In this document: positions 10,301 to 54,632 of the stretch, one piece after another
Layout of the letters: each line of letters begins with the position of its first letter
Numbering within the stretch: the stretch's first letter is position 1
Assembly (NCBI GenBank): GCA_024679065.1
Contig: JAGIQG010000008.1
Span: 68,634,001-68,698,000, forward strand
Direction of reading: 5' to 3'
Origin: Sphyrna mokarran
Lineage: Eukaryota
Length of the DNA stretch: 64,000 nucleotides
Program-made: the position numbers and the translations under genes
Notes under the pieces: model-generated
What the model was told of the DNA's origin: nothing
The model's input: the letters and a program-made list of their open reading frames with translations, nothing else
The model's database searches: none

Positions 10301-10948
10301 CTCTACATCCTTGGGAGTGGCCTGGTAGGCCCCAGCTGTGATTGCACGTAGACTTCACCAGGTCCTTTTTTTGGGCTCCATGCTCCTGATTATGGTCGGC
10401 ACACATTCTAAATGTTCGGAGACACACCAGATGAGCTCCACCACTTCTTATGCTACCATTGAGAAACTATGACAAAGTTTCTGCACACATGGGATGCTTG
10501 ATGTTCTGATCTCTGATAATGGTGCACTGAGTTTCAGGTCTTCATGTTTTCCAATGGAGTCAAATGCACTGGGACAGCAATCTACCACCTGGCTGAATAA
10601 GTGATACAGACTTTTAAGCTTGGCATGAAGACGCAATCTGCAATGTGCACAGAGACAAAACTAGAACAATTTTTAGTTGGCTACAAGACTACCCCTCACA
10701 CAATGACAGGAATTGCCCAAGTGGAATTGTTAATGGAACAGATACTTTAGACAAGATTAAGCTTACTTCTGCCAAACCTGGCAGGGAGGGCAGAGTTCCC
10801 ACAAGAGACCCAAGTGAAGAATCATGATTCTGTAAGGACAGACAGAACTTTCAAAACCAAAGACACAGTCCATGTGAGGAACTTTGATGTCAGTCTCAGT
10901 TAGATTATATTGGAGAAAACAGTAGTTGCACTCCTGCCTCATGGCAGG

Positions 10949-11588
10949 AAACCTATTCATTCACTAATATGCTTTAGGTAAGGACATATGCCATCCTTAC
11001 CTGGTCTTGTCTACATGTGACTCCAGAGCCACAGCAATGTGGTTAACTCTCAACTGCCCTCTGAAATGAAGGGCAGTTAGGAATAAGCAATCCTGTAAAA
11101 ATGAATAAATAAAAAAAAACTTCGCTTATTGTTTCTCTTTTCCACTGGAAATCTTCCCAGTGTCTGAAATCCCTTTCCCAACCCTGTTATCATTCTAATG
11201 AATCTCTGCTGTGTGTTCATAAATGAGCGTCTCCCAGTTAATACCATGAAAGCAATCAATCATTTCACTCAACTCAGCCCAACAGCACAACCCTCGCATT
11301 TGGCGTGTCACATGATGGCACCTCTTCATACAGGTACAGGCCCTCAGGGTTCCAAAAAGCTATCATTCCTCATACCATTATTACAACAGCAACTCCCATT
11401 TGATTTTGTTTTCATTGTTTGGATCTTCAGGCTAAACGCTGTGCAGTATGTTTCAAGTTCTAAACCTGAATACCTGCCAGGAAAGATCTCACATTGCTCT
11501 GTCATCTTGTTACCAGAGGGTACATCACTCAACTATTCTTTTATGTGTCAATCACAATGGCCGTAAAGAACAGTTGCCCAATTGCAAT
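10949..11588 (+). repeat. 640-bp near-identical direct copy of 13037-13676
   Basis: Constant offset of 2088; only two differences seen (11316 T vs 13404 C; 11388 A vs 13476 G). Confidence 0.97.
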
Positions 11589-11643
11589 AGTTTCATGGTC
11601 ATCATTAGATTTTTAATTCAGAGTTTTATTGAATTCAAATTTC
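11585..11643 (-). repeat. 59-bp inverted copy of 12964-13022
   Basis: CAATAGTTTCATGGTC...GAATTCAAATTTC is the exact reverse complement of GAAATTTGAATTC...GACCATGAAACTATTG. Confidence 0.95.
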
Positions 11644-12332
11644 GTGGCATCACAGACCCAGGTTCACATTCTCCAGTGTTCTACATGGATTTTCTCCAGG
11701 TACTCTGGTTTCCTCCCATAGTCCAAAGATGTGCAGGTTAGGTGGATTGACCATGGTGAAACAAAAATTGACCTTAGTGTCCCAAGTTGTGTAAGTTAGA
11801 CGAATTAGCCATGGTAAGTAAATGTGTGGGGTTATGGGGATTGGGCAGAGGAGAAGGCCTGGATAAGCTACTCGGTCAGAGAGTGAATGCTGATTCAATG
11901 GGTCGAATGATTTTATGAAAAAGGAGTCCATATAAATTCCAAGTTCAGGACAAGATTGTCAGAAAATACCTGGACTATCTCCTAAATAAGGAGCTCGGGC
12001 CAGCATAGGCCTCATTACTAGCCATAAAGATGGCCACTCAGGCCATAAATGAAGGTTGACACTATGCAGATCCTCTATGTGATGAAGATTTGGACTATGA
12101 TATGGAAGCGAAAGAAACCAGTGCACCTACTGAAGCAAGACCTCAAGAAGATCCAGAGTCGGTGGCTTTGAGGCGCTGTCTTTGAGAGCAAAAATCGCCC
12201 ACTCGCTTCATACCATCTGATCCCATCCTGCCTCCCATTGACACCAGGCCAATAGCTAAGTGATGAAAAATGTCACCCCCCCACTGCTGTAGCAAAGATG
12301 CGGGGGAAAAAGTGGATTTGAGAGGGGATGGA

Positions 12333-12597
12333 TATTATGATGGCCATGGAGACAATCAATAGAACATCCTGTGGGCATTATTAAATACGAACTCCCGTAT
12401 TAGGCAAATGGAGACTCATGCAATAGGGAAGGAGTAGCAGCGGGGGGAGAGAGGGAGGTTTTAAAACCAGTTGGCTCCACTCAGGCTGACAATTGATAGA
12501 CTGGGGATTTGCACTCTGTGTCATTGAACAGCATTCAGATATCGCAATAAATAAAGGGTAAATGGCAATGAAAGACTGGCCCGGTAAGATTATGATA
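12333..12597 (+). repeat. 3' LTR of Gypsy element 2
   Basis: TATTATGATGG...GGTAAGATTATGATA after the PPT; shares GGCAAATGGAG, CAATAGGGAAGGAG and TGGCTCCACT blocks with the 5' LTR. Confidence 0.9.
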
Positions 12598-12869
12598 CTT
12601 CCACAATCTCAAGATGTCCCAAAGGACTTCCAACAGAGAAGTACTTCCTCTGTGTTGCATTAAAGTGTCAGCCTTGAATATGAGTTCAAGCCTCTGGAAT
12701 CAGACTTGAACCTAGGATTGTCTGACTTAGAGAGCAGTGTACTACCAATAATCCATGACTGACATATTAAGAAACCCCCTTTTCCTTCCACTAATAGTTC
12801 AACTGGAGGAAATGATCTTTTCTTATTTTATCGTAACGTTAACAGACTTTATTAAATGGGGGTGGGGAG

Positions 12870-13208
12870 ACAGTGGAACAGTGGAAATATCACTGGATTA
12901 GCAATCCAAAGATCCAAGGTAATCTTTGGGAATCTACGTTTGAATCTTACCACCGCAGATGATGAAATTTGAATTCAATAAAACTCTGAATTAAAAATCT
13001 AATGATGACCATGAAACTATTGTCACTTCGTGTTAAAAACCTATTCATTCACTAATATGCTTTAGGTAAGGACATATGCCATCCTTACCTGGTCTTGTCT
13101 ACATGTGACTCCAGAGCCACAGCAATGTGGTTAACTCTCAACTGCCCTCTGAAATGAAGGGCAGTTAGGAATAAGCAATCCTGTAAAAATGAATAAATAA
13201 AAAAAAAC
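12870..13208 (+). mobile_element. tRNA-derived SINE with A-rich tail
   Basis: Pol III-like head, conserved core GAAATTTGAATTCAATAAAA..ACATGTGACTCCAGA..AACTGCCCTCTGAAATG, tail AATAAATAAAAAAAAA. Confidence 0.75.
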
Positions 13209-13679
13209 TTCGCTTATTGTTTCTCTTTTCCACTGGAAATCTTCCCAGTGTCTGAAATCCCTTTCCCAACCCTGTTATCATTCTAATGAATCTCTGCTGT
13301 GTGTTCATAAATGAGCGTCTCCCAGTTAATACCATGAAAGCAATCAATCATTTCACTCAACTCAGCCCAACAGCACAACCCTCGCATTTGGCGTGTCACA
13401 TGACGGCACCTCTTCATACAGGTACAGGCCCTCAGGGTTCCAAAAAGCTATCATTCCTCATACCATTATTACAACGGCAACTCCCATTTGATTTTGTTTT
13501 CATTGTTTGGATCTTCAGGCTAAACGCTGTGCAGTATGTTTCAAGTTCTAAACCTGAATACCTGCCAGGAAAGATCTCACATTGCTCTGTCATCTTGTTA
13601 CCAGAGGGTACATCACTCAACTATTCTTTTATGTGTCAATCACAATGGCCGTAAAGAACAGTTGCCCAATTGCAATTGC

Positions 13680-14700
13680 TTCCCTCTCCTTTCTGCCAAA
13701 CTTTAACATTCATACTTTCTTCAAAGCCGTGGCAGATTTCCATTGTAACTTTGGAGGAAATACGTCAGAGGCCTTCAGTAAGAGTTTAAATCATGTTGTC
13801 TACTGAACATGGGCCGAGCTACAGAATGCTAAAGATGGGGTCAGTTACAGTTCTCACCCTAATGTCTCAATGCCATATTGGATCAGGCCTGACGATGCCA
13901 ATTGGCTACAATGCCAAGGCAGAGAGGAAACCATCTTGTGCGCAAAGGAGTACATTCCGGCAGGGAGTTAATAGCTGCTGTGTGAGAGAAGACGGGAAAA
14001 ACATATTGAAAGAGGAGAAAAAAAAAACAAAATCATCAGAGACCATGAAGGGGCAAGTGAGTTGCTTTTCTTAAATAAATTGCAGCTACAAACAGTAAAC
14101 ATGAGAAGAGGAGAGAACACAGCTTTTATTGTTCATGGCCCAGCAGGAACTAAATGGTGAGTGGAGCCAAGCCAGTCACAGGCTGTGTGGAAACGTCGCC
14201 TCATTCCCTTTTTGTTCTGATGGTTAAATGCAACTCAAAGCTAGTATTGTTGCTCTGTCTTGGCATTGGCTCAGATGGGCAGTGAGGCTGGCAATTAATG
14301 GTCTCGCTTTGCTGAATGAGTTATGGTAACGACAGGTCTGATGGGGAAGCAGAGGCCCTGACTTTCCCAGGAACTGAATAAATCCGTGCTCTGACTGAGC
14401 TACAAACCTCATGTAAATGGGTGCAGGAAGGCTCTGCACATGACAGTGCTTAGAGGTCAGAGAAAATCTTACAAACTCTCTTGAAAAAGCCCTGGTTACC
14501 CTAATGAAAGTGCCTAGGATGTATTACCATGGTGACAAGTTCCTTTTTAACTGAATTCAACGGGGTTTTCTTTGGGCGAGGGGCGGGGCGTGAGACTTCC
14601 GTTCCCTTCCTGCCACAAACGCTAATAAAGTTGTGATTTCCCAGTCGTGATTGACTGGGCATAACTCAGGCTATTGGGACAGGGCATTATGGATTAAGTT
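13680..14700. promoter_or_regulatory. Non-repetitive-looking block with promoter/enhancer-type motifs
   Basis: GC box GGGGCGGGG 14580-14588 next to ETS ACTTCCG 14595-14601; CCAAT palindrome GCCAATTGGC near 13897; FOX-like GTAAACA near 14095. Confidence 0.3.
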
Positions 14701-15775
14701 TTATCACAATAAATACACTATAAGGAAAATTGTTGTTGAGGTGCAGACAAAAGTCTTGAATTCAGGCCATCAAGTTTCATTTGGGATGTATTGAAATAAG
14801 TTCATCTAAAAATGTTGGCGAGGATAATGGCAGGACACAAGTCTTTCTGCTTTTTAAATTCTGGTGGTAAACAAAGAATATTCGCTCATTCAAAACCTTT
14901 TCCAACAAACATTCCAGTGAAACTCATGTGAAAACTGGTCCCTATGGGAAAAGCGACACTTAACTTGCACACTGTAAACATCAATAAAATACTGATAAGC
15001 TAATCAGTATTTGTTATATTGTTTAAGGTTTATATTAGTCAGGGTAGAAAACAGAATCCTGCTCTTCTTCGATGAGTGCCATAGGTTTTGTTGCGATACC
15101 TGAGAAGGGAGATAGGGTTGCAGTTCAGTATCTTATCTGAAAGATGGAATTTCTGACACTGTATATAGTGTAGAGGCAATGATATTGGATTAATAATAGA
15201 GAGCTGCAGAACATGATTTCAAATTGCGCCATGGCATATTGTCATAGTAAAGGAGGAAGTAGTAGAGGAATTGAATTGGGTTAAAACACTGCAAGAGGTA
15301 TACTTTAGAAAGGTTGGCATTAGTCAAAGCTGACAAGTCGAGAAGGACTATTAAAAAAGGATATGGGATCCTTGGCTTTATAACAGGCATAAAGTGCAAA
15401 AACAAGGAAATTTCAAATGGTATTGAGAATAGAAAAGGAAGGGACTATACAAACAAACACAGCTGTGAGGCAGAATGGTATATTAAAAGGAGCATCAAAT
15501 GAAGTCATATGGATTGAACTCAAGCACAAAAAAAGGATGATCATATTGCTCGAAATGCACTCAAACAGTCAAAGGGAGATAGAAGAACAAATATGGAGGC
15601 AATTCTCTGAGAATAATAAGGCAGTAATAGTGGGGTACTTCAACGAATATAACATGAACAGGAATTAAATCTGTTTAAAAGGTATGAGAAGGAGAATTAT
15701 TCGTGCATCCAAGGGACAGTAAACAAACTCAAACAAGAGAAGGATCAATTGAGAGGACCAGCAGTGAAAAAGCAT

Positions 15776-16090
15776 TGTAGTTGTGGCAATGTGGCCCCTA
15801 AAGGGATCCTTACTCGAGAGCCACGTGAACAGGCTGGAGTCTATGGATTGTCAAGGCGGGAAGCTGAGTCAATTAGGAGCGAGGACATATATCCCAGGTC
15901 AAAGAGATCTCATAGTTGGAGCCAAAGAGGACAGTTGTTCAGTATTTAATAACGCTACTCTCTTTGATCTGGGATATATGTCCTCGCTCCTAATTGACTC
16001 AGCTTCCCGCCTTGACAATCCATAGACTCCAGCCTGTTCACGCGGCTCTCGAGTAAAGATCCCTTTAGGGGCCACGTTGCCACAACTACA
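15776..16090. mobile_element. 315-bp fold-back element (132-bp inverted arms, 51-bp spacer), MITE-like
   Basis: 15776-15907 is the reverse complement of 15959-16090 with 4 transitions; TG...CA ends; AT on both flanks. Confidence 0.9.
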
Positions 16091-17073
16091 ATTGTTAATT
16101 CATCGTCATTCTCAATCCATTACAATAATGCAGTTAGATTTAGTGAAGTTATGGAGAAGCACAATAATAGATCAAGAGTAAAACTTCTCATTTAGCGAAA
16201 ATCCAATTTTACTGAATAGAGATGTGATTTAGTGAAAATAGACTGATAACAGTGACTTGAAGGTAAACCAGTGTGAAGCAATGGGAGGCATTCACGGATG
16301 AGATACAGAGGGTTCAGAACAAATACATTTCCACAAAGAAAAAAGGTGGACCCCAAATTAGCAAACTCTTCCTCCTCACACACACGCACATACTCTGGAA
16401 GTCAACAAACATATAGGGTAGGAAAGGGCAAAAAGGGAAAGTTTATCTCAGATGCCAATAACTCAATACTGCAGAAAGCCGAAAGAAGTATACAAAGAGC
16501 AGGATGAAATTGGGACTGAAATTAGGAAAGTGAATAGAAGGCATGAAAAAGCATTGGCAAGTAAAATCAGGTAGAATCTGAAGATGTTTTTATAAATGCA
16601 GGAAGAGCAAGAGGATAACTAAAGAAAGAGCAAACACGTAAAATGAATCTGTGTATAGAGGTAGAAGACATGGGCATGGTTTTGAATAACTATTTCGCGT
16701 CTCTCTTCACAAAGATTTGCATCTCTCTTCACAAAAGCGAGAGGGGAAGCAGACATTATGGTATGAAATATTGGATGGGATAAATATAGAGATAGGGAAA
16801 ATATATAGAGATTTCGCATCTTTGGAAATAAATATTCACAAGGCCCAGATAAGATGTATTTGAAGCTTTTAGAAAAAAGCAAGGGAGGCAATAATGGATG
16901 CTCTGACCATAACAGCGGTGGCACCAGAGGACTGCTAACATTTTACCCATTGTTCAAAAGGAGGATTAGGAATAGACCAAGCAAATTAGATGCCAGTCAT
17001 ACCCTCACTGATGGGCAAAGGTATAGATTAATCAAAGAAGTCAACATGAATTTAAGAGGTCATATCTGACTAA

Positions 17074-20240: not shown

Positions 20241-22370
20241 AAACTGTTGCACGGTCCGTTAGCAATCAGACCAAAATCCATCAAGTGGATGTTGCATCAT
20301 ACAGGCACATATGGCATTTCACACATGATGATGACACAACTGAGTCATTGGAGCTACTTGAAAGAACCTCCACAGCACTTATTCCAGCCAGAGGTCCTGT
20401 TTAAGAATTGGGCATTCATTTTCCTAGCTTTCATATACACTTCTACAAACTACACAGACTACATCCTGTGACACCTGGGATGCAAATGCAGTCATTGTAG
20501 CGAATAATATTACTTGGACAATATGATCTGGATTATACATGACCAACTCACCTGCGCTGCCCACATCAAGGCCAAAGTGCAACACTGCAGTGCGGATAAA
20601 TGTCTAGTACTCAACAATCATGTTTTAGATATATGTGCTGACCAGCATCACGGAGTCTGATCATTAACTTCCATTAATGTCATGCTTTGAAGGAAAATGA
20701 AAGATGCAAGGAATATCTCAGTACACCTTTGACCTCCAGAGTTCTATATAGTCCAACAGAGATAAAAGAGGCTCTCCTAGGCTTCATCAGTCAGCCAAAA
20801 TTCTTGCTTCTGTTGACAGACGGCACTTCAAGATGGATATCAGTTTGTATTGTTATTATTGCTGATAAGATGTGCTTCATATTTTGAATATACGTTTTGA
20901 GCTCCCTAGAGTACAAACAGACACTGGGTCATGTAGAAGTAAAAGTATTTTTAAAAATGCTCAAATGTGACAGATACAATGTGACAAATTCACAGGGAAC
21001 CATTTGTGCTACAAGTGAGACACCATCCTTCACTCTTGCACACTCCTACATTGTATTCCCCATGCTGCTCATTTCTCAGTTCATATAGCAAGAGGAGTGT
21101 GATGTCTGGCCTTGTTGTGCAGACCCTACTTCAAATTATGGCCTTTGCATTTCAGTCATTGGCAAAGATGGAGCAGAATAACTAGGGAGGAGGAAGAGGA
21201 GGATGCTGAGAAATTTTCAATATCTTCACCCTCCTCAAATACCTCCATAGCCCTAGATCCTAATATAAGAAATAGGAGCAAGAGTAGACCATCTGGCCAC
21301 ATCAGGCTTCACTGTTCCAGCATTCAATATGATCATGGTTGATCTTTCCATGGACTCAGCTTCACTTAGCTGCCCACTGAGCATAACCTTCAATTCTTTC
21401 ACTGTTTAAAAATTTATCTATCCTTGCCTTAAAAACACTTACAACCCTTTGGGTGAAGAAATTCCTCCTCAACTCAGTTCTAAACCTGCTCCCTCTTATT
21501 TTGAGTTTATGTCCCATATTTCTAGTTTCACCTGCCATTGGAAACAACTTCCCTGCTTCTATCTTATTTATTCCCTTCATAATGTTACATGTTTCTATAA
21601 GATCTCCCCTCATTCTTCTGAACTCCAATGAATATAATCTCAGTCTACTCAGTCTCTCCTTATAAGCCAACCCTCTCAGCACCAGAATCAACCTAGTGAA
21701 TCTCCTCTGCATCCCCTCCAGTGCTAGTATATCTTTTCTCAAGTAGGAGATCAAAACTCCAGATGTGGCCTCACCAGCATCTTATACATGTACAACATAA
21801 TCTCCCTGTTTTTAGACTCCATCTCTCTAACAATGAAGGACAAAATTTCATGTGCCTTCTTAGTTATCTGCTGCACTTTTTGTGATTCATACACAAGGAC
21901 ACCTATGTCCCTCTGTGCAGCAGCATGCTGCAATATTTTACTATTTAAATAATAGTCAAGTTTGCTGTTATTTCTACCAAAATGGATGACCTCACATTTA
22001 CCAACATTGTACTCCAGATCCTTAGACTATCTATATCCTTTTGCAGATTTTCAATGTCTTCTGCACATCTTGCTCTGCCACTCATCTTAATGTCATCTGC
22101 AAATTTTGACACACTACATTTGATCCCCAACTCCAAATCATCTATGTAAATTGTGAATAATTGCTGTCCCAATGCTGATCGCCAACCAGAAAAACACCCC
22201 ATTTACCCCCATTCTTTGCTTTCTGTTAGTTAACTAATCTTCTAACCAAGCTAGTACATTACTTGTAATACTGTGCAGCTTTATCTTAAGCATCAGCTTT
22301 TGGTGCAGCATATTGTCAAATCTAGATATGCCACATCCATAGGTTCCCCATTGTCTGTCTTAGCACATAA

Positions 22371-22839
22371 GACAGGAGAGAGTGGATGCAGGAGAGAGTC
22401 GTGGATGGTGGTTTGTCTTCCTGGAGCTGGGATCCGGGATGTTTCTGGATGCCTCCCAGACATCCTGAAAGGGGAGGGTGAGGAACCTGAAGTTGTAGTG
22501 CATATAGGTACTGCAGACATAGGCAGGAAAAGGGAAGCAGTCATCAAAAGGGATTATAGAGAACTGGGTAGGAAGCTGAGGAAGAGAAAAGCGAAGGCAG
22601 TAATTTCAGGATTGCTGCCTGCGCCTCGGGAGAATGAGAGCAGGAATCAAATGAGGTGGAGGATGAATGCATGGCTGAGGGACTGGAGCAGGGGGCAGGG
22701 ATTCAAGTTCATAGACCATTGGGACCTCTTTAGGGGCAGGTGTGACCTGTACAGTAAGGACGGGTGGCACTTGAACCCTAGGGGGACTAATATCTTGTCA
22801 GATAGGCTAGCTAGGGCTACTGGGGAGTCTTTAAATTAG
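22371..22839 (+). pseudogene. CR1 ORF1 C-terminal SGNH/GDSL esterase domain (5'-truncated)
   Basis: MVVCLPGAGIRDV..VVVHIGTADIG..VISGLLP..DGWHLNPRGT; the upstream part of track ORF 22273-22839 is read-through from the flanking old CR1. Confidence 0.88.
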
Positions 22840-22964
22840 AAAAGCTGGGGGGTGGGAATACCGATGGGACGGTGAATAAGGAGGTTAGTTCCCAGGTAGG
22901 GAAGGACTGCAGGCACTCTGAGAAGGGCGTTAGGCGCGTGGTGGAAAAGGGAAATATCCTGACT

Positions 22965-25700
22965 GAGGAGCTGAGGTGTGTCTATTTTAATGCCAGGAGT
23001 GTAGTAAATAAGGTAGATGAGCTTAGGGCGTGGATTGCTGCTTGGGAGTGTGATGGGGTGGCCATTACAGAGACTTGGTTGTCTCAGGGACAGGACTGGG
23101 TACTTCAGGTGCCGGGATTCAGGTGCTTCAGGAGGGAGCAAAAGTGGAGGTGGTGTGGCACTGTTGATCAGGGACAGTGTCATGGCTGTAGAGAAGGTGG
23201 AAGACGGGGAGGGATTGTCTACGGAGTCTCTGTGGGTGGAAGTTAGGAACAGCAAAGACTCGATAACTTTGCTGGGTGTATTCTATAGGCCGCCCAACAG
23301 CGGCAGGGAACTTGAGGTGCAGATAGGGAAACAGGTCCTAGACAGATGTAAAAATAACAGGGTTGTCATGATGGGAGATTTCAATTTCCCAAACATCGAC
23401 TGGAATATCCCAAGGGTAAGGGGTTTGGATGGTGTGGAGTTTGTAAGGTGTGTTCAGGAAGGTTTCCTGACACAGTATGTGGAAAAGCCTATGAGAGGAG
23501 AGGCTGTACTTGACCTGGTGCTTGCTAATGAGCCAGGGCAGGTGTCGGATCTCACGGTAGGTGAGCATCTTGGGAATGGAGATCATAATTCTATCTCTTT
23601 CACGATAGCAATGGAAAGAGATAGGATCAGGCAGGCTAGGAAGGTGCATGTCTGGAGTAAGGGGAAATATGAAAACATTAGGCAGGTAATTGGACGCATA
23701 AACTGGAAGGAGGTGTTCTTGGGGAAGAGTACAGAAGGAAAGTGGCGGTTTTTCAAGGAATGTTTGTATAGGGCACTGCAAGACAACGTTCCGAGGAGTC
23801 AAGGAGGTTCTGGTAGGACGCGGGAACCGTGGTGCACGAAGGTAGTGGTGAACCTAGTTAGGAAGAAAAAAATGGTATATAAAAGGTTCAGAGAGCTAGG
23901 GGATGTTAGGGATCTAGAGGAGTATAAGGTGTGTAGAAGGGAACTTAAAAAGGAAATTAGGAGAGCCAGAAGGGGTCATGAGAAGGCCTTGGCAGTAAGA
24001 TTAAGGAGAATCCCAAGGCCTTCTACAAATATGTGAAAAGTAAAAGGATGAGAAGAGAAGGGATAGGGCCTATAAAAGGTGAAGGGGAAAAGTCTGTGTG
24101 AATCCGGAAGAAATGGCAGAGGTGCTTAACGAGTACTTTGCCTCGGTATTCACGGTGGAAAGTGAACTGGGAGATTGCACTGCAGGTTTGCGGCATACGG
24201 AAAACATCGATTTTGTGGATGTTAGGAAAGAGGATGTGTTAGACCTGTTAAATTCTATCAAGATAGACAAGTCGCCAGGACCAGATGGGATGTACCCCAG
24301 GTTATTGTGGGAGGTGAGGGAAGTGGTTGCAGAGTCCCTGGTGATGATCTTTGCGTCGTCCATGGAAACAGGAGAGGTTCCGGAGGATTGGAGGATTGCG
24401 GATGTGGTTCCTATCTTTAAGAAAGGGAACAGGGTTAGTCCAGAAAATTACCGACCGGTGAGTTTGACTTCAGTGGTTGGTAAGCTGATGGAGAGGCTTC
24501 TGAGGGATAAGATATATGAACATTTGGAGAAGTTTGGACTGATTAGAAATAGTCAGCATGGTTTTGTCAAGGGCAGGTCATGCCTTATGAGCCTAGTTGA
24601 GTTCTTCGAAATGTGACTGAACACATTGACGAAGGAAGGGCAGTGGACGTAGTGTACATGGACTTTAGTAAGGCGTTTGATAAGGTCCCACATGCAAGGC
24701 TTCTGGAGAAGGTGAGAGGGCATGGGATCCAAGGGGCTTTGGCCTCGTGGATCCAGAACTGGCTTGCCGGCAGAAGGCAGAGAGTGATTGTGGATGGGTC
24801 TTGTTCTGCATGAAGGTCGGTAACCAATGGAGTGCCCCAGGGATCTGTTCTGGGACCCCTGCTGTTTGTCATTTTCATAAATGACCTGGATGAGGAAGTG
24901 GAGGGATGGGTTAGTAAGTTCGCCGACGATATAAAGGTCGGTGGTGTTGTGGATGGTCTGGAGGGATGCCAAAAGTTGCAGCGGGACATAGACAGGATGC
25001 AAGACTGGGCGGAGAAGTGGCAGATGGACTTCAAGGCAGATAAATGTGTAGTGGTCCATTTTGGCAGGAATAATGGGATGAAGAAGTACAATATAAGGGG
25101 TAGGAGTCTTAGCTGTGTTGTAGAGCAGAAGGATCTCGGGGTCTGGGTTCATAGGACTCTTAAATCGGCCTCGCAGGTGGAGGAAGTGGTCAAGAAGGCG
25201 TACGGTGTACTGGCCTTCATTAATCAAGGAGTAGAGTTTAGGAGTCAGGAGGTAATGATGCAGCTCTATAAGACTCTTGTCAGACCCCAGTTGGAGTATT
25301 GTGCGCAGTTCCGGTCGCCTCATTATAGGAAGGATGTAGAGGCAATTGAGAGGGTTCAGAGGAGATTTACAAGGATGCTGCCTGGATTGGGAGGCAGGCC
25401 TTATGAAGATAGGTTGAGGGAGCTGGGACTCTTCTCACTGGAGAGACGTAAGTTGAGAGGTGACCTGATAGAGGTTTATAAAATGTTGAGAGGAATAGAT
25501 AGGGTGGACTCTCAGAGACTATTTCCCCGAGCTGAAATGGTCACTACGAAAGGACACAGATTTAAGGTGCAGGGAAGCAAATACAAAGGAGATGTCAGGG
25601 GTAGGTTTTTCACTCAGAGGGTGGTGAGTGAATGGAACCGACTCGGAGGTTGTTGAGGCAAACTCACTGGGGTCTTTTAAGAGACTTCTGGATGAGTATA
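22965..25700 (+). pseudogene. CR1 ORF2 (APE endonuclease plus reverse transcriptase), frameshifted
   Basis: YFNARSVVNK, ITETWL, FYRPPN, MGDFNFP, DHN; NYRPVSLTS, QHGF, YMDFSKAFDKV, PQGSVLGP, FADD; frameshifts near 23135, 23995, 24090, 24610 and stop at 24811-24813. Confidence 0.95.
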
Positions 25701-36847: not shown

Positions 36848-37110
36848 CAGCGGTTAGCACTGCTGCCTCACAGCACCAGGAACCCAGGTTCAATTCCTGG
36901 CTTAGGTCACTGTCTGTCCGGAGCCTGCACATTCTCCCTATGTATGCATGGGTTTTCTTCAGCTGATTCAGTTTCCTGCTGGTTAAGTGTATTGCCCCTG
37001 CTAAATTCTCCGTCAGTGTACCTAAGCAACCAAAGTTTGGTGACTAAGGGATTTTCACAGTAACTTCATTGCAGTGTTAATATAAGCCTACTTGTGACAC
37101 TAATAAATGA
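36848..37110 (+). mobile_element. HE1-related SINE inserted in a Harbinger-like relic (about 36680-37590)
   Basis: GGTTAGCACTGCTGCCTCACAGCACCAGG..GGTTCAATTCC; tail CTTGTGACACTAATAAA. Confidence 0.8.
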
Positions 37111-49189: not shown

Positions 49190-50637
49190 ATAATATTGTG
49201 CCTTTCAGAAACATTCTTATGTTATGTTTCTTGTGCAAGATTTATTTTAGCTGTCAGTTCTATTAACCGGTGCCGCTTTGTCTATAACCGGCAGCCTGTT
49301 GATACTGCAGCAGCATAAATGGTCGTAATTGCTATTATTTTGTTTTAATCTGGACTAATACAGTTGTTATTTTAATGTTTTCTTCTGGGGTTTTTCAAAG
49401 TAGGGCTTGATTAGGTAGATTAGCATGCAAAAATGACTGGATGGGACACAGCTTATACTAAAAAAAGTTCAGCTGTGCTTGGGATCTTTAGGGACAGGTA
49501 CATCTCTCTATGTCTCTTTCTTCTCTCTGGATTTGGAGACAGGGATTTGCCAGGAAATAAGTGTTTTTCTCTGGAGGCTGCTGAATGACGGTCAGAAGAC
49601 AGGGGTATTTCTGGATTTGCTCAAAGTGGTTGGAAGGCTGGAAACATAGCACACACATGAGCATATCTGTTTTATGCTAACTTGTTCTGAAGGGGAATTT
49701 ATGTCTGTGGGGATATCACTTAAATTAAAACTATAGAGATAGTTAGCTGTTAAGAATTAAACCTTGTACTGTTTAAATATTTCAATTCATGGAAGTTATG
49801 CTAATTCTTGTTATATTTTAACTGTTGTTTAATAAATTTTGTTTTATCAAAAGCTTTCTAGCTGGTCAATTGAATTATAATAGGTGCAAAATACCTAATG
49901 CCCACCTTAATGCCAAAATCAAAAGAAGTTGAGGTCTAGGCTAACTTTGTAATATATCTTGGAGTTTCTAATCTGTTGAATCTAACCAGTGTATATTCAC
50001 TTCCCAGTCTAGTCCTCTCATCGAATTCCAATCTCCTGGCTAGCCAACAGTCACCACAAATCTGTGAACGCTTGCATTTACACAAAAGTTCAATACACAT
50101 TCTCTTTCCCCCTGCTGACTGCCTAGCCTCTCTATGTCTGTCTTTCCTCCAATATTCTCAGTTTCCTGTATCTCTCTGTTCTACTGAGTTTTACCCGCCA
50201 CATGCTTTTCATTCTTTGGATGTCAACTCAATAGAATTATATTTTCTGGTTTAAAAAAGATCCTCTTTTCCCAAGTGTTAGCTGAACAATACTTGGGAGC
50301 ACACAAGTGAATGCAAACTGGTTCCCATCTGAGATCTGTGTTTTAGATTGGAGGGAGAGGGAGGATTTCAGGCTTTGTCTGTGTCTACACTGGTAAGAAT
50401 TATACCATGTCATGTTTAAACATTTCAATTGGTAAAAGTTATGCTAATTCTTTTTGTTGCATTTGAACTGTGTTGTTAAATAAATAAATTTTGTTTTAAC
50501 AAAAGCTTCCTAGTGAGCCAATCAAATCATACCTGGACCAAAACACCTTCTACTCACCTTAATGCCAAAATTAAAAGAAGTTGGAGTCTAGGCAAACTTT
50601 GTAATATATCTTGGGGTTTATGATCTGGTCCTTAACA
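49190..50637 (+). mobile_element. Solo LTR-like element with internally duplicated 3' part and a captured 420-bp segment, inside an old minus-strand CR1 (about 48960-51475)
   Basis: Start TATTGTGCCTTT.AGAAA resembles the reverse end of 59880-60562; AATAAA; end GGTCCTTAACA; 49750-49975 repeated at 50392-50627. Confidence 0.65.
49969..50390 (+). repeat. Diverged direct copy of 51835-52252
   Basis: Colinear along the full length (CCAATCTCCTGGCTAGCC, TGTGAACGCTTGCATT, AGTGTTAGCTGAACA, TTTGTCTGTGTCTACAC); offset about 1866. Confidence 0.95.
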
Positions 50638-52079
50638 TAAAATCTCTCATCCCTGATGTGACAAATCTCATCTGCATCTCTCCTAAATTGTGGTGTTCTG
50701 AATTGGACAAAGTAATCCATTTATAGCCTAATGTCTGATATATAAAGGTTTTGCATAAGTTTCTTGATTTTGCATTTTATGCTTCTAGTAATACCACCAA
50801 AGATTCCATATGCCTTTTAACAACTTGACCTGCCACTTTCTAAGATTACTGTACATCCAACCTTGGCTTCTCTGTTCTTAACACTCTTTAAAATTGTACC
50901 ATTCCAGTTACACTGTATCTTCTCATTCTTTTTACCAAAATTTTTCACCTCACAGATGCCATATTTCTTTGTGCTCCTCAAATCTTAAGCTCTCTGAAAT
51001 CCACATTTCTTGCACAATGCATACTAATTCTTAAATGTTAACTACATCTCTAAGTTCCTTGCCATCTGTTAATTTTGAAACTATGCCCTGCATAGTTCAG
51101 TCTAGTTCATTAACATATATTAAAAGAGAGCAATACTTCCAACAGCTACCTCTAAAAAACAACTGATCACCACTAGCTTCTACAATCTGTCCCTTGGTCA
51201 CTTTTGTCTCTGCTATTCTTTTAATTCCATATCTTTCAATTTTACTAACGAGTTTATCATTTGGTACTTTGCAATCACCTTTTGAAAGTCCATATACCCA
51301 ATATCTACCACACTACCCAAATCAACACTTTCTACTGCATACAAGACCACAATCAAGCAGGTCAATTTACCTTTAAATCTGTGATTAGCTCATACTTCTC
51401 CACATATACAAATTAATTTTGTCCTGAACTGTCTTTAAAAGTTTCCGCACCACCGACCTTAGGCAAACTGGCCTGTGTGAGAGTGAAGATTTGTTACTTC
51501 TCTCATATCAATGACACAGTCATTGATTCAGTAAAATATATTTCCATTGATCTATGGTAATTAATTAAATTGTTTTTACACGCCCTTTTCCCATTGTTTT
51601 AGGAAAACTGTTTCCCAGAGGCCATGATAATATCTAACCTCTGGAGACACAGTGCTCCTAATGTGGCGAATGCATAAAAACAGAAGTATTCATCTTTTAA
51701 ATCCCAAATAGTGAAGAATACACTGAGAAGTGGCAGTGCTATTGTTGATGAAGCTCTCTAACCCCCTCATTACCAGTACAATCGGGGGACAATGGGAAGA
51801 GGCAATGAATAGCTAATATGTTAGCTTGTGACATTAATCTGCTGAACCTAACTGGTGTACATTCCTTCCCAGTCCAATCATCGCATCAGATCCCAATCTC
51901 CTGGCTAGCCTGACAGTCACCACGAGGTTGTGAACGCTTGCATTCACATACAGGTTCTGTACACATTCTCTTCTCCCATGCTGACTGCCTAACCTCTCTG
52001 TGTCTGTCTTTCCCCTAATACTCTGTTTCCTATGTCTTTCTATCCTACCCAGTTTTACCCGCTGGATGCTTTTCATTCT

Positions 52080-53680
52080 TCGCACGTCTACGCGACAGAA
52101 TTATATTTTTTGGTTTAAAAAAAAACCCTTTCCCCGAGTGTTAGCTGAACATTGCTTGGGAGCGCACAGCGAACGCAAACTAGTTCCCGGCTGAGATCTG
52201 TACATTGGATTGGGGGTGGAGGGAGGATTTCAAGATTTGTCTGTGTCTACACACCTCGGGGTGAGCAGAGAGGGATTCATCACAAAAGCAAGGCTAGGCG
52301 AGCAGGCTCTCAAAGACATCTAGCAGGAAACTAACCGTGTCCAGTATAGGAGAGCCTGGAGTAAAGAAATGGAGTGAAATTGAGGTGAATGAAGAAGAGG
52401 GAATTTCCAAAGCACTGGAGACGATTTAGCAAAGAGATGCAAAAAACAGTGGCAACGGTTCGTTCGCAAACCGGAGCCATGTAAATCATTCGCCACCATT
52501 GAACACAGGGCGGACAGGGATCAATCAGTTCGGCTATGTCAGCACACAGTCCTGGCATATCTGCTACTGTGACATAATGAAATAACAAGGCAACATGCAG
52601 TATTTAAAAAAAATCATTGGGCTCGATGGAGTTGAGGTGTGGATTTAGAATGTGAAACAAATGGACAGGAAATGACTGGTAATGTACCCCTGTAGCGAGA
52701 AAAATCGCGCCCTTTCAATCTCCCCTGTTCTGATTCTAGCTCTGAAGATTGACTGGGATCTCTCTCCGCTCCATGGTGAAGATTACATCGCACTTGCCTC
52801 TTGCCCGTCCGGGCTCGGGACCAAACTTCAAAGGAATTCATATCAATTAGTACGCCAGTGAGACCCGTCTGCAATAAAACTGGTTTGCGCTTCCAGCTGT
52901 AATGTAACTACACATCAAAATATTGTTATTCGATAAATATAGAATCGTTTTAAAACTCACCTTTTACTCTTCTTACAATTCTCTTTTTTTTCCGTGTCAA
53001 CTGAAACAATTTTCTGAGATTAAATCACTAGATCCCTGCTCCCTTGGGATTAGATTTTCTTTGTGTGGCGCGGATAGAGTGGGATATAATCCTACAGGCA
53101 CAAAAGCCTCAGGATGTCCTCGCACCGATTCCTGTGGCTGCCGTCAGTGAAAGGTGTCCTGTGGTGACACTGCTGCCGCCCCAGCCTGTGTGTTGGAGAG
53201 TCTCGGTGTGATGGCTCTGATCAACTGTGTGCTGCTACCGCCTGGCTCGGAGTGGCTTTGCGCTTGCTGAATGGTGGGATGGCACTATTGAAGCCTGTCT
53301 GAGCTGGATGGACTTTACACAGCCACAACTCTCTCTTTGACATCACACGCACATCGTTGGTTCCTCTGTAAATCCCTCTCTGAAAGACAGCGAGACGGAT
53401 AGGCTGCTCTCATCATCTGCCTGAATGGCTCAGTGTTTTGAGCCAAGCTCGTTCTTGGCATTGAAAGTTCTCCTTGACCTCTCTCTACCCTTTAAGAATG
53501 CCACTTTATTATTTATTCCCTTGTATTTACTGAGCGGTCTTAATATACTTCCTTTCTTTCCCCATGATTATTATCTTCACTCGTTTCTTTGTCCGAGTTT
53601 TACAAACACTCGTCCGCGCTGGCAGCCAGATGCTCAAATGTGTGTTTCTTTATATGGTGTAGAGATGCCGGCGTTGGACT
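52080..53680. promoter_or_regulatory. CpG-enriched unique region: candidate unmethylated promoter/enhancer
   Basis: Visibly higher CpG density than the non-TE background; GC box near 52508; TGATTTAC and TGATTGAT on minus strand at 52481-52488 and 52520-52527. Confidence 0.55.
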
Positions 53681-54013
53681 GGGATAAGCATAATAAGAAG
53701 TCTCGCAACACCCAGGTTCAAGTCCAACAGGTTTATTTGGTAGCAGTACCTTTAAGGGTCTCAAACTCCTTCATCAGGTGAGTGAGGGCTTGTGTTCACA
53801 AGCAGGGCGTATAAAGACACAAACTCAAAGTATAAGACAATGGTTGAAATGCGAGTCTTTACAACCATTATCTTGTAAATTGAATTTGTGTCTGTAAATG
53901 CCCTGCTTGTGAACTCAACTGCTTATTCACCCGAAGAAGGAGTGACACTATGAAAGCATGTGCTACCAAATAAATCTGTTGGGCTTTAACCTGGTGTTGC
54001 GAAACTTCTTATT
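53655..54013. mobile_element. Penelope-derived inverted terminal-repeat element with degenerate hammerhead cores in both arms
   Basis: Arms about 53692-53846 and 53862-54013 are imperfect reverse complements; cores CUGAUGA..UAAA (minus, 53751-53777) and CCGAAGA..GAAA (plus, 53931-53955). Confidence 0.75.
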
Positions 54014-54632
54014 TCCTTTACATAATCAGGTAGTACTCAAATTCTCTTCCACAATCTTGATCTCTATCTAGCTTTCTGTTTATACTGGATAGATAACCTC
54101 CTGTTTAATATCTCGTGATTGTGAAAGTGAGCCCAACTTGTAAATACAATCCATTTTAAAAGGTGCAGATTTCAAAGGTGCTGAAGAGAGGAGATCTTGT
54201 TACTCTCATATAGCTTAACAGTTACTCTTAGATAGTTTAGCCTTCTGCGGGGAATCTGAATTTGTGTCTGTAAATGCCCTGCTTGTGAACTCAACTGCTT
54301 ATTCACCCGAAGAAGGAGTGACACTATGAAAGCATGTGCTACCAAATAAATCTGTTGGGCTTTAACCTGGTGTTGCGAAACTTCTTATTTCCTTTACATA
54401 ATCAGGTAGTACTCAAATTCTCTTCCACAATCTTGATCTCTATCTAGCTTTCTGTTTATACTGGATAGATAACCTCCTGTTTAATATCTCGTGATTGTGA
54501 AAGTGAGCCCAACTTGTAAATACAATCCATTTTAAAAGGTGCAGATTTCAAAGGTGCTGAAGAGAGGAGATCTTGTTACTCTCATATAGCTTAACAGTTA
54601 CTCTTAGATAGTTTAGCCTTCTGCGGGGAATC
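53881..54632 (+). repeat. Perfect tandem duplication, 2 x 376 bp
   Basis: 53881-54256 equals 54257-54632; no difference seen by eye. Confidence 0.97.

Follow-up and report, generated by a model that had tools for sequence, protein, structure and literature searches.

The locus described here raises the question of how two pieces of neighbouring DNA, copied in opposite orientations and joined to each other, came to interrupt a SINE in the shark Sphyrna mokarran. The window, that is, the whole stretch of 64,000 nucleotides that was analysed, had been the subject of a sequence-only reading, which described an insertion copied from DNA further downstream and attributed it to a replication template switch in the germline.

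Anatomy of the composite insert

The insert between the two copies of the sequence TGGCA comprises 698 bp and is built from the dinucleotide GG, a direct piece, an inverted piece, and a single G. A self-search of the window together with a base-by-base comparison identified positions 10949-11588 on the plus strand (piece B) as a direct copy of 13037-13676, with 2 differences over 640 bp: T at 11316 stands against C at 13404, and A at 11388 stands against G at 13476. Both differences are CpG transitions at donor CpGs, of which the donor piece holds eight. Piece B consists of the 3' part of a SINE, an A-rich tail, and 469 bp of unique DNA, in line with the earlier estimate of about 470 bp. The inverted piece (piece A, 11585-11643, minus strand) matches 12964-13022, read as the reverse complement, at every position (59 bp, 0 differences, 100% identity; E 1.6e-23 in the self-search). 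By base-by-base comparison the tetranucleotide CAAT at 11585-11588 (plus strand) is common to both pieces, whereas the 14 donor nucleotides 13023-13036 are absent from both.

On the plus strand TGGCA is found at 10942-10946 and, again by base-by-base comparison, at 11645-11649; the left copy could be extended to 8 nt with one mismatch, starting at 10939. Short filler is present at both outer junctions. The GG at 10947-10948 on the left resembles neither donor nor target, and the single G at 11644 on the right replaces an A that both the donor and the empty site have within a shared TCAT. RNA editing was considered as a source of these A-to-G junction changes and was rejected, since the left changes are on the wrong strand. 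The microhomology amounts to 4 nt at the middle junction, while the right junction has 2-4 nt (TC/TCAT), a mismatch included; there is none at the left junction, where weak microhomeology sought by eye did not exceed chance. Neither a poly(A) tail nor an element end was found at the insert junctions, and the end at 12964 lies in the middle of a SINE, antisense and tail-less.

The templated local insertion is thus real. The coordinates of the sequence-only reading all hold in the self-search of the window, as do the two CpG differences of the direct copy, the joining of the inverted copy through CAAT, and the TGGCA near both junctions. Its offset of about 2.1 kb needs a qualification: 2088 is the present offset, but before the insertion the donor was situated 1.3-2.0 kb from the break (the gaps from the donor pieces to the break are 1321 and 1449 bp).

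The interrupted element, which we take to be an HE1-like SINE, is left with a 5' stump at 10920-10946, recognized by BLAST across the rejoined flanks, and a remainder at 11650-11910 (end approximate), which matches the copies at 30.5, 41.8, and 62.8 kb with 78-85% identity; both are on the plus strand. The insert hence splits one transposable element (TE) into two collinear parts, as is required, from a length of 50 bp upwards, of repair-mediated duplications. When the flanks were joined with a single TGGCA, they aligned across the join to the SINE copy at 36857-36896 (BLAST, 80%, 41 columns). The spacing of the rejoined flanks is the same as in two of four SINE copies of the window, the other two being shorter by 1 and 6 nt and none longer; the register of the 5' SINE part was read by eye, as MAFFT misplaced that part. 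Since the rejoined flanks fit other SINE copies in alignment and spacing, we regard TGGCA as a target duplication. Taken alone a 5-mer duplication is weak evidence, because a flexible search finds one by chance in 22% of random flank pairs.

Contig evidence for the junctions and the empty allele

The comparison covered contigs of four of 24 listed runs: X1, which may be the assembly's own sample, and three relatives, X2, X3, and X5. An X1 contig covering 10689-11018 crosses the left junction with 0 differences and at a depth like that of neighbouring contigs. The left junction is therefore backed by a contig; the middle and right junctions are those of the assembly. In one of the three relatives, X3, a contig covering 10830-10946 stops at the end of TGGCA and its further 34 letters diverge from the insert. 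Judged by its stop position, the contig parts from the insert at the point expected of an empty allele.

In all three relatives the contig over piece B ends exactly at 11588 and continues for 140-2257 letters that are unlike the insert, as the donor would continue. Contigs of the SINE family, with loose ends at 11585, extend past piece A and, like the donor, enter sequence that resembles the gap. These continuations support the earlier proposal that the copy at 13 kb is the donor.

The long X1 contig over piece B likewise ends at 11588 and continues away from the insert. Together with the middle and right junctions not being among the contig pieces listed, and with X1 possibly being the assembly's own sample, this might suggest an assembly artefact at one or more junctions. 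We consider such an artefact very unlikely. A collapsed repeat along the donor path, which is expected in short-word contigs, explains the stop at 11588; the left junction is spanned without differences at neighbour depth; and an artefact would hardly produce CpG transitions between the copies, a duplicated target, and flanks that rejoin into a SINE. The collapsed X1 contig on the donor path carries the copy alleles at both CpG sites, which short-word contigs cannot phase. The contig depth is 15.2, where 15.0 is expected for a heterozygous and 16.4 for a homozygous insertion, two expectations that lie close together.

Donor locus and copy number in the genome

All donor parts lie on the plus strand. 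The donor of piece A (12964-13022) is inside a second, high-copy SINE (about 12860-13200). It is followed by the 14 nt found in neither piece (13023-13036) and by the donor of piece B (13037-13676), which ends within a 12-bp palindrome at 13667-13678. The antisense strand of this SINE (13091-13180, minus) is the best-scoring predicted cryptic exon of the window; it would be on the sense strand of SLC1A2 (see below) and was duplicated by the insertion as 11003-11092 (minus). A 132-aa ORF in piece B did not match any Pfam family, and at E 0.1 the region 12800-16300 did not match any Rfam family.

In a genome search with 561 insert bases, the best 40 of 539 candidates being scored, 41 matches were obtained: the insert, the two donor pieces, and 38 others. 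Within this scope the 38 others reach only a 60-bp SINE part, the unique part has two genome copies (insert and donor), and no further locus with the same composite was found. For the unique part there is accordingly a single donor on the same chromosome, within the 50 bp to 5 kb that characterizes repair-mediated duplications.

These results bear on whether the insert could be a small composite TE, or the product of retroposition of the donor SINE with 3' transduction. Both pieces begin in a high-copy SINE and a target duplication is present, as such an origin would have it. Yet the composite is not a TE family, as its unique part matched only the donor, and a plus-strand SINE transcript would give the opposite piece order and join. 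This origin is largely refuted and is the least probable of those considered here. The earlier statement that ordinary transposition was not involved thus agrees with the missing poly(A) and with the lack of a family among the best 40 of 539 scored candidates.

The insertion site probably lies in intron 1 of SLC1A2

To the left of the window, at a distance of 32-97 kb, there are exons on the minus strand that match SLC1A2/EAAT2, a glutamate transporter (EAAT2 E 2e-41), and exons coding for sushi, EGF, and trypsin domains were found 30-90 kb right of the window; by human synteny the latter gene is presumably PAMR1. Besides one half-masked island, the CpG island at 52.5 kb is the sole unmasked one between both genes. 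This island (52500-53300) contains a strong minus-strand splice donor at 52960 and is likely the first exon of SLC1A2. Start motifs expected of the SLC1A2 first exon were not matched anywhere from exon 2 to the neighbouring gene. With the coding exons to the left and the likely first exon at 52.5 kb, the insertion site likely is in intron 1 of SLC1A2.

Several other features were noted in the window. About 1 kb upstream of the likely first exon, 53881-54632 form a perfect 376-bp head-to-tail duplication with 0 differences, which either arose very recently or reflects an error of the assembly. Near the CpG island, 49747-50627 and 51835-52252 are local direct duplications of greater age (79-82% identical). 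A 134-nt inverted repeat with 97% complementarity and a 51-nt spacer at 15774-16092 has no Rfam match, and 22255-25656 (plus strand) is the long remnant of a LINE, still intact in part, in which both an endonuclease and a reverse transcriptase were matched.

Mechanism of the insertion

We considered three mechanisms for the generation of the insert. First, and in our opinion somewhat more probable than all others together, it is a repair-mediated duplication that arose in the germline when the two ends of a single staggered double-strand break each took one and the same exposed strand as template. The break would have left 3' overhangs with TGGCA on both of them. Resection of the right arm over at least 2 kb would then have exposed the minus strand, the sole template strand that both pieces need. 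The right end could have snapped back onto its own strand near 12964, aided by the 2-4 nt microhomeology (TC/TCAT), and would have synthesized 59 nt or slightly more, until meeting the left end. The left end would have primed in trans at 13037, where no microhomology is seen and the GG filler was added, and would have synthesized 640 nt. Both new 3' ends would finally have been released and annealed at CAAT, and the gap filled.

The donor pieces abut, 14 nt apart, in tandem on the minus strand, suggesting that both break ends used one strand. If donor positions were uniform within 2 kb, such an abutment would occur by chance in about 0.7% of cases. For a donor situated to the right of the break, resection should place the direct piece on the left flank and the inverted piece on the right flank. 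This arrangement is observed, in what is a 50:50 test, and resection of the right arm likely explains the single-strand geometry without RNA. Five other ATTG sites are present in 13216-13675. Snap-back and trans priming on resected DNA have been described for SD-MMEJ, where snap-back gives inverted and trans priming direct templated pieces, as here; the SD-MMEJ snap-back described takes place within 30 nt of the break, whereas a 1.3-kb loop is needed here (PMC5728401). Several points weigh against repair from both ends: the left junction lacks microhomology, the 5-nt target duplication is weak by itself, and Pace et al. look to the homologous chromosome, not to the resected arm, for the template (PMC2671141). 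Moreover, no intermediate is visible, and one event cannot fix the mechanism.

Second, one nascent strand could have made three template switches, either where a fork had stalled or during break-induced replication (FoSTeS/MMBIR; complex MMB-TI), with TGGCA being copied again on its return. The CAAT microhomology and the TC/TCAT microhomeology are in keeping with such serial switching, and in two persons 33 of 103 and 26 of 99 events were complex germline insertions from multiple templates in both orientations (PMC8421209). On the minus strand the insert reads like the donor segment after an inversion, in place, of its distal part, an outcome that could result if the fork switched to the opposite strand. 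However, three switches, one of them without microhomology, and an exact re-replication of the target are needed. Serial switching by itself does not explain the 14-nt abutment, nor does it explain the fillers at the two outer junctions, such as are also seen on either side of single-piece events nearby. As a two-ended repair accounts better for the target duplication and the abutment, we hold serial switching to be possible but rather unlikely. Of the sequence-only reading, the real, young, and local templated insertion stands, while FoSTeS/MMBIR is not the best explanation for it.

Third, both break ends could have reverse-transcribed nascent SLC1A2 pre-mRNA, or primed on the DNA strand displaced by its R-loop, in a kind of twin priming on RNA in cis; the enzyme would have been either the reverse transcriptase of a LINE or a repair polymerase. 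The sense strand of SLC1A2 is the minus strand, and the site likely falls within intron 1 of this gene. Transcript-templated repair is described for human cells (PMC12065846), and inverted RNA-derived pieces are described at breaks (PMC2246262). Nevertheless, the end primed first has no poly(A), tail, or element end, and a retrotransposon particle that diffuses freely would not integrate 2 kb from where it arose. The agreement in strand is one 50:50 fact, for which resection accounts as well. Furthermore, no splice was removed despite the strong predicted cryptic exon in the copied part, and marks specific to RNA, for instance the loss of an intron, are absent. A transcript as template therefore appears unlikely to us.

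Local duplications in the surrounding region

We surveyed 1.864 Mb around the window (G000:C1437, 67.73-69.60 Mb) for local duplications. In a young set (at least 96% identity, at least 40 bp, tandem arrays taken out) 15 of 560 hits were pair-specific. They correspond to 13 events, of which seven are inverted, five direct, and one, the composite insert, mixed; the gap is within 158-1911 bp in every one of them. A target duplication of at least 7 nt (7-12 nt) with short fillers was observed in 4 of the 13 events against 8.5% expected. A looser pair-specific set (at least 88%, at least 30 bp) gave 102 hits in both orientations; 38 had gaps of 50-2000 bp and none of 2-5 kb, and the 57 that are more than 100 kb apart are probably rare repeats. 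The sharp cut-off at 2 kb would fit a limit of resection.

From 40 rows below 6 kb we examined 34 events, after dropping two tandem or near-tandem cases, one at 5.7 kb, and three second pieces. A target duplication of at least 7 nt was present in five of these 34, near the chance expectation of about three. Among the 34 there was no other clean composite of a direct and an inverted piece. Second pieces at nine other local duplications were rejected as old repeats, satellite, low-complexity DNA, or pieces of the same orientation. Splicing was likewise rejected for a two-piece direct event at +923 kb, whose 341-bp skip has no GT..AG ends.

Some of the inverted pairs may be transposon ends. The survey suggests roughly seven young and 20 total candidates per Mb. 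The density of local copies looks far above published vertebrate values, a comparison in which methods differ and empty sites are unconfirmed. Two of the local duplications may be mentioned separately. L012:2391-2572 is a 182-bp direct copy of L012:963-1144 with a target duplication of 10-12 nt and adjoins an SLC1A2 exon. At about 69,112,900-69,114,400 of G000:C1437 there is a 505-bp inverted local duplication, 100% identical, with a 10-nt target duplication and fillers of 4 and 7 nt.

Age and constraint

The copy diverges from the donor by 0.29%, whereas the relatives diverge from piece B by 8.5-8.7%. A retroelement remnant in the left flank, which we take to be LTR-type, diverges from the relatives by 7.5-9.3%; its contigs may include paralogs. 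The ratio of the divergence between copy and donor to that of the relatives is about 3% (95% range 0.4-12%), and the true ratio is probably below 3% because both changes are at CpGs. As piece B has diverged like the flanking remnant, that is, at the neutral rate, it appears to be without constraint. Judging from these divergences, the insertion is young and neutral, and there is no sign of a function of the insert.

The duplicated segment had been placed next to a candidate regulatory block. Its divergence of 8.5-8.7%, being like that of the flanking remnant, does not support a regulatory relevance, and in the neighbouring block nothing beyond motif-like sequence was found that would speak for or against such a role. 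By eye we found promoter-like motifs in 13950-14620, presumably a GC box and ETS-like and RFX-like sites. The same region has plus-strand splice donors at 14057 and 14157 and may be an antisense exon or an alternative promoter.

Relation to known systems

Twin priming of L1 was reportedly described by Ostertag and Kazazian in 2001. The insert shares with L1 twin priming, as portrayed in 10.1101/2024.08.27.596794, the presumed priming of two ends on one strand, the inverted distal piece, the small internal deletion, the join at microhomology, and the target duplication. Unlike in L1 twin priming, there is no poly(A), L1, or element end, the donor is in cis at 1.3-2.0 kb, and the template was probably DNA.

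The closest resemblance is to the 824 human repair-mediated duplications inside TEs reported by Pace et al. (2009; PMC2671141), whose donors are less than 5 kb away with a peak near 1.2 kb. They measure up to 619 bp and have no poly(A), but microhomology, filler, and sometimes target duplications, of 4-21 nt; a class with microhomology, target duplication, and filler ('MH+TSD+filler') comprises 2 of 39 inspected proximal cases. The shark insert has the same features: an interrupted TE, a single donor closer than 5 kb, no poly(A), and microhomology together with filler and target duplication. With 698 bp it exceeds the proximal maximum of 619 bp. That study also describes 20 two-donor chimeras, joined by terminal annealing at short complementarity. 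In five chimeras with two local donors the donor pieces are 289-3432 bp apart, compared with 14 bp here; the two pieces have opposite orientations here, whereas the text passages and table head considered give no orientation for the chimeras. Cartilaginous fish do not figure in that survey as presented there. The insert thus agrees with repair-mediated duplications in its target, its donor, and its junctions, and synthesis-dependent annealing is inferred, here as in that study, from the junction signatures. Most likely it is an ordinary break-repair scar of a known kind.

The complex MMB-TI described by Osia et al. (2021; PMC8421209) are similar in being germline, multi-template, and local insertions of mixed orientation with microhomology. 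Their model, as set out in the part of that paper considered here, is serial switching of one strand and calls for neither target duplication nor abutting donors. According to Sudmant et al. (2015; PMC4617611), human inversions are most often inverted duplications that measure less than 1 kb and have their other copy no more than 5 kb away; this 'Inverted Dup' resembles the insert in size and distance but is described as single-piece. In a non-exhaustive literature search, mostly of titles and abstract openings and of part of Table S1, we found no published case of abutting donors for a direct and an inverted piece.

Meaning of the insertion

As a single neutral scar in an intron the insertion is of little importance by itself. 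Its value lies in being a clean record of a mechanism: the abutting donors give a testable polarity rule, which sets the resected arm against the transcript. If a transcript had served as template, the insert would be a relic of twin priming that took place in cis and involved no retrotransposon, and part of the abundant local duplications at 0.1-2 kb would be products of transcription-templated repair. The polarity rule bears on the long-unsettled question why repair-mediated duplications have their donors at a distance of about 1 kb and can be copied in both orientations. The genome of this shark, being apparently rich in such candidates, would be a good place to test it.
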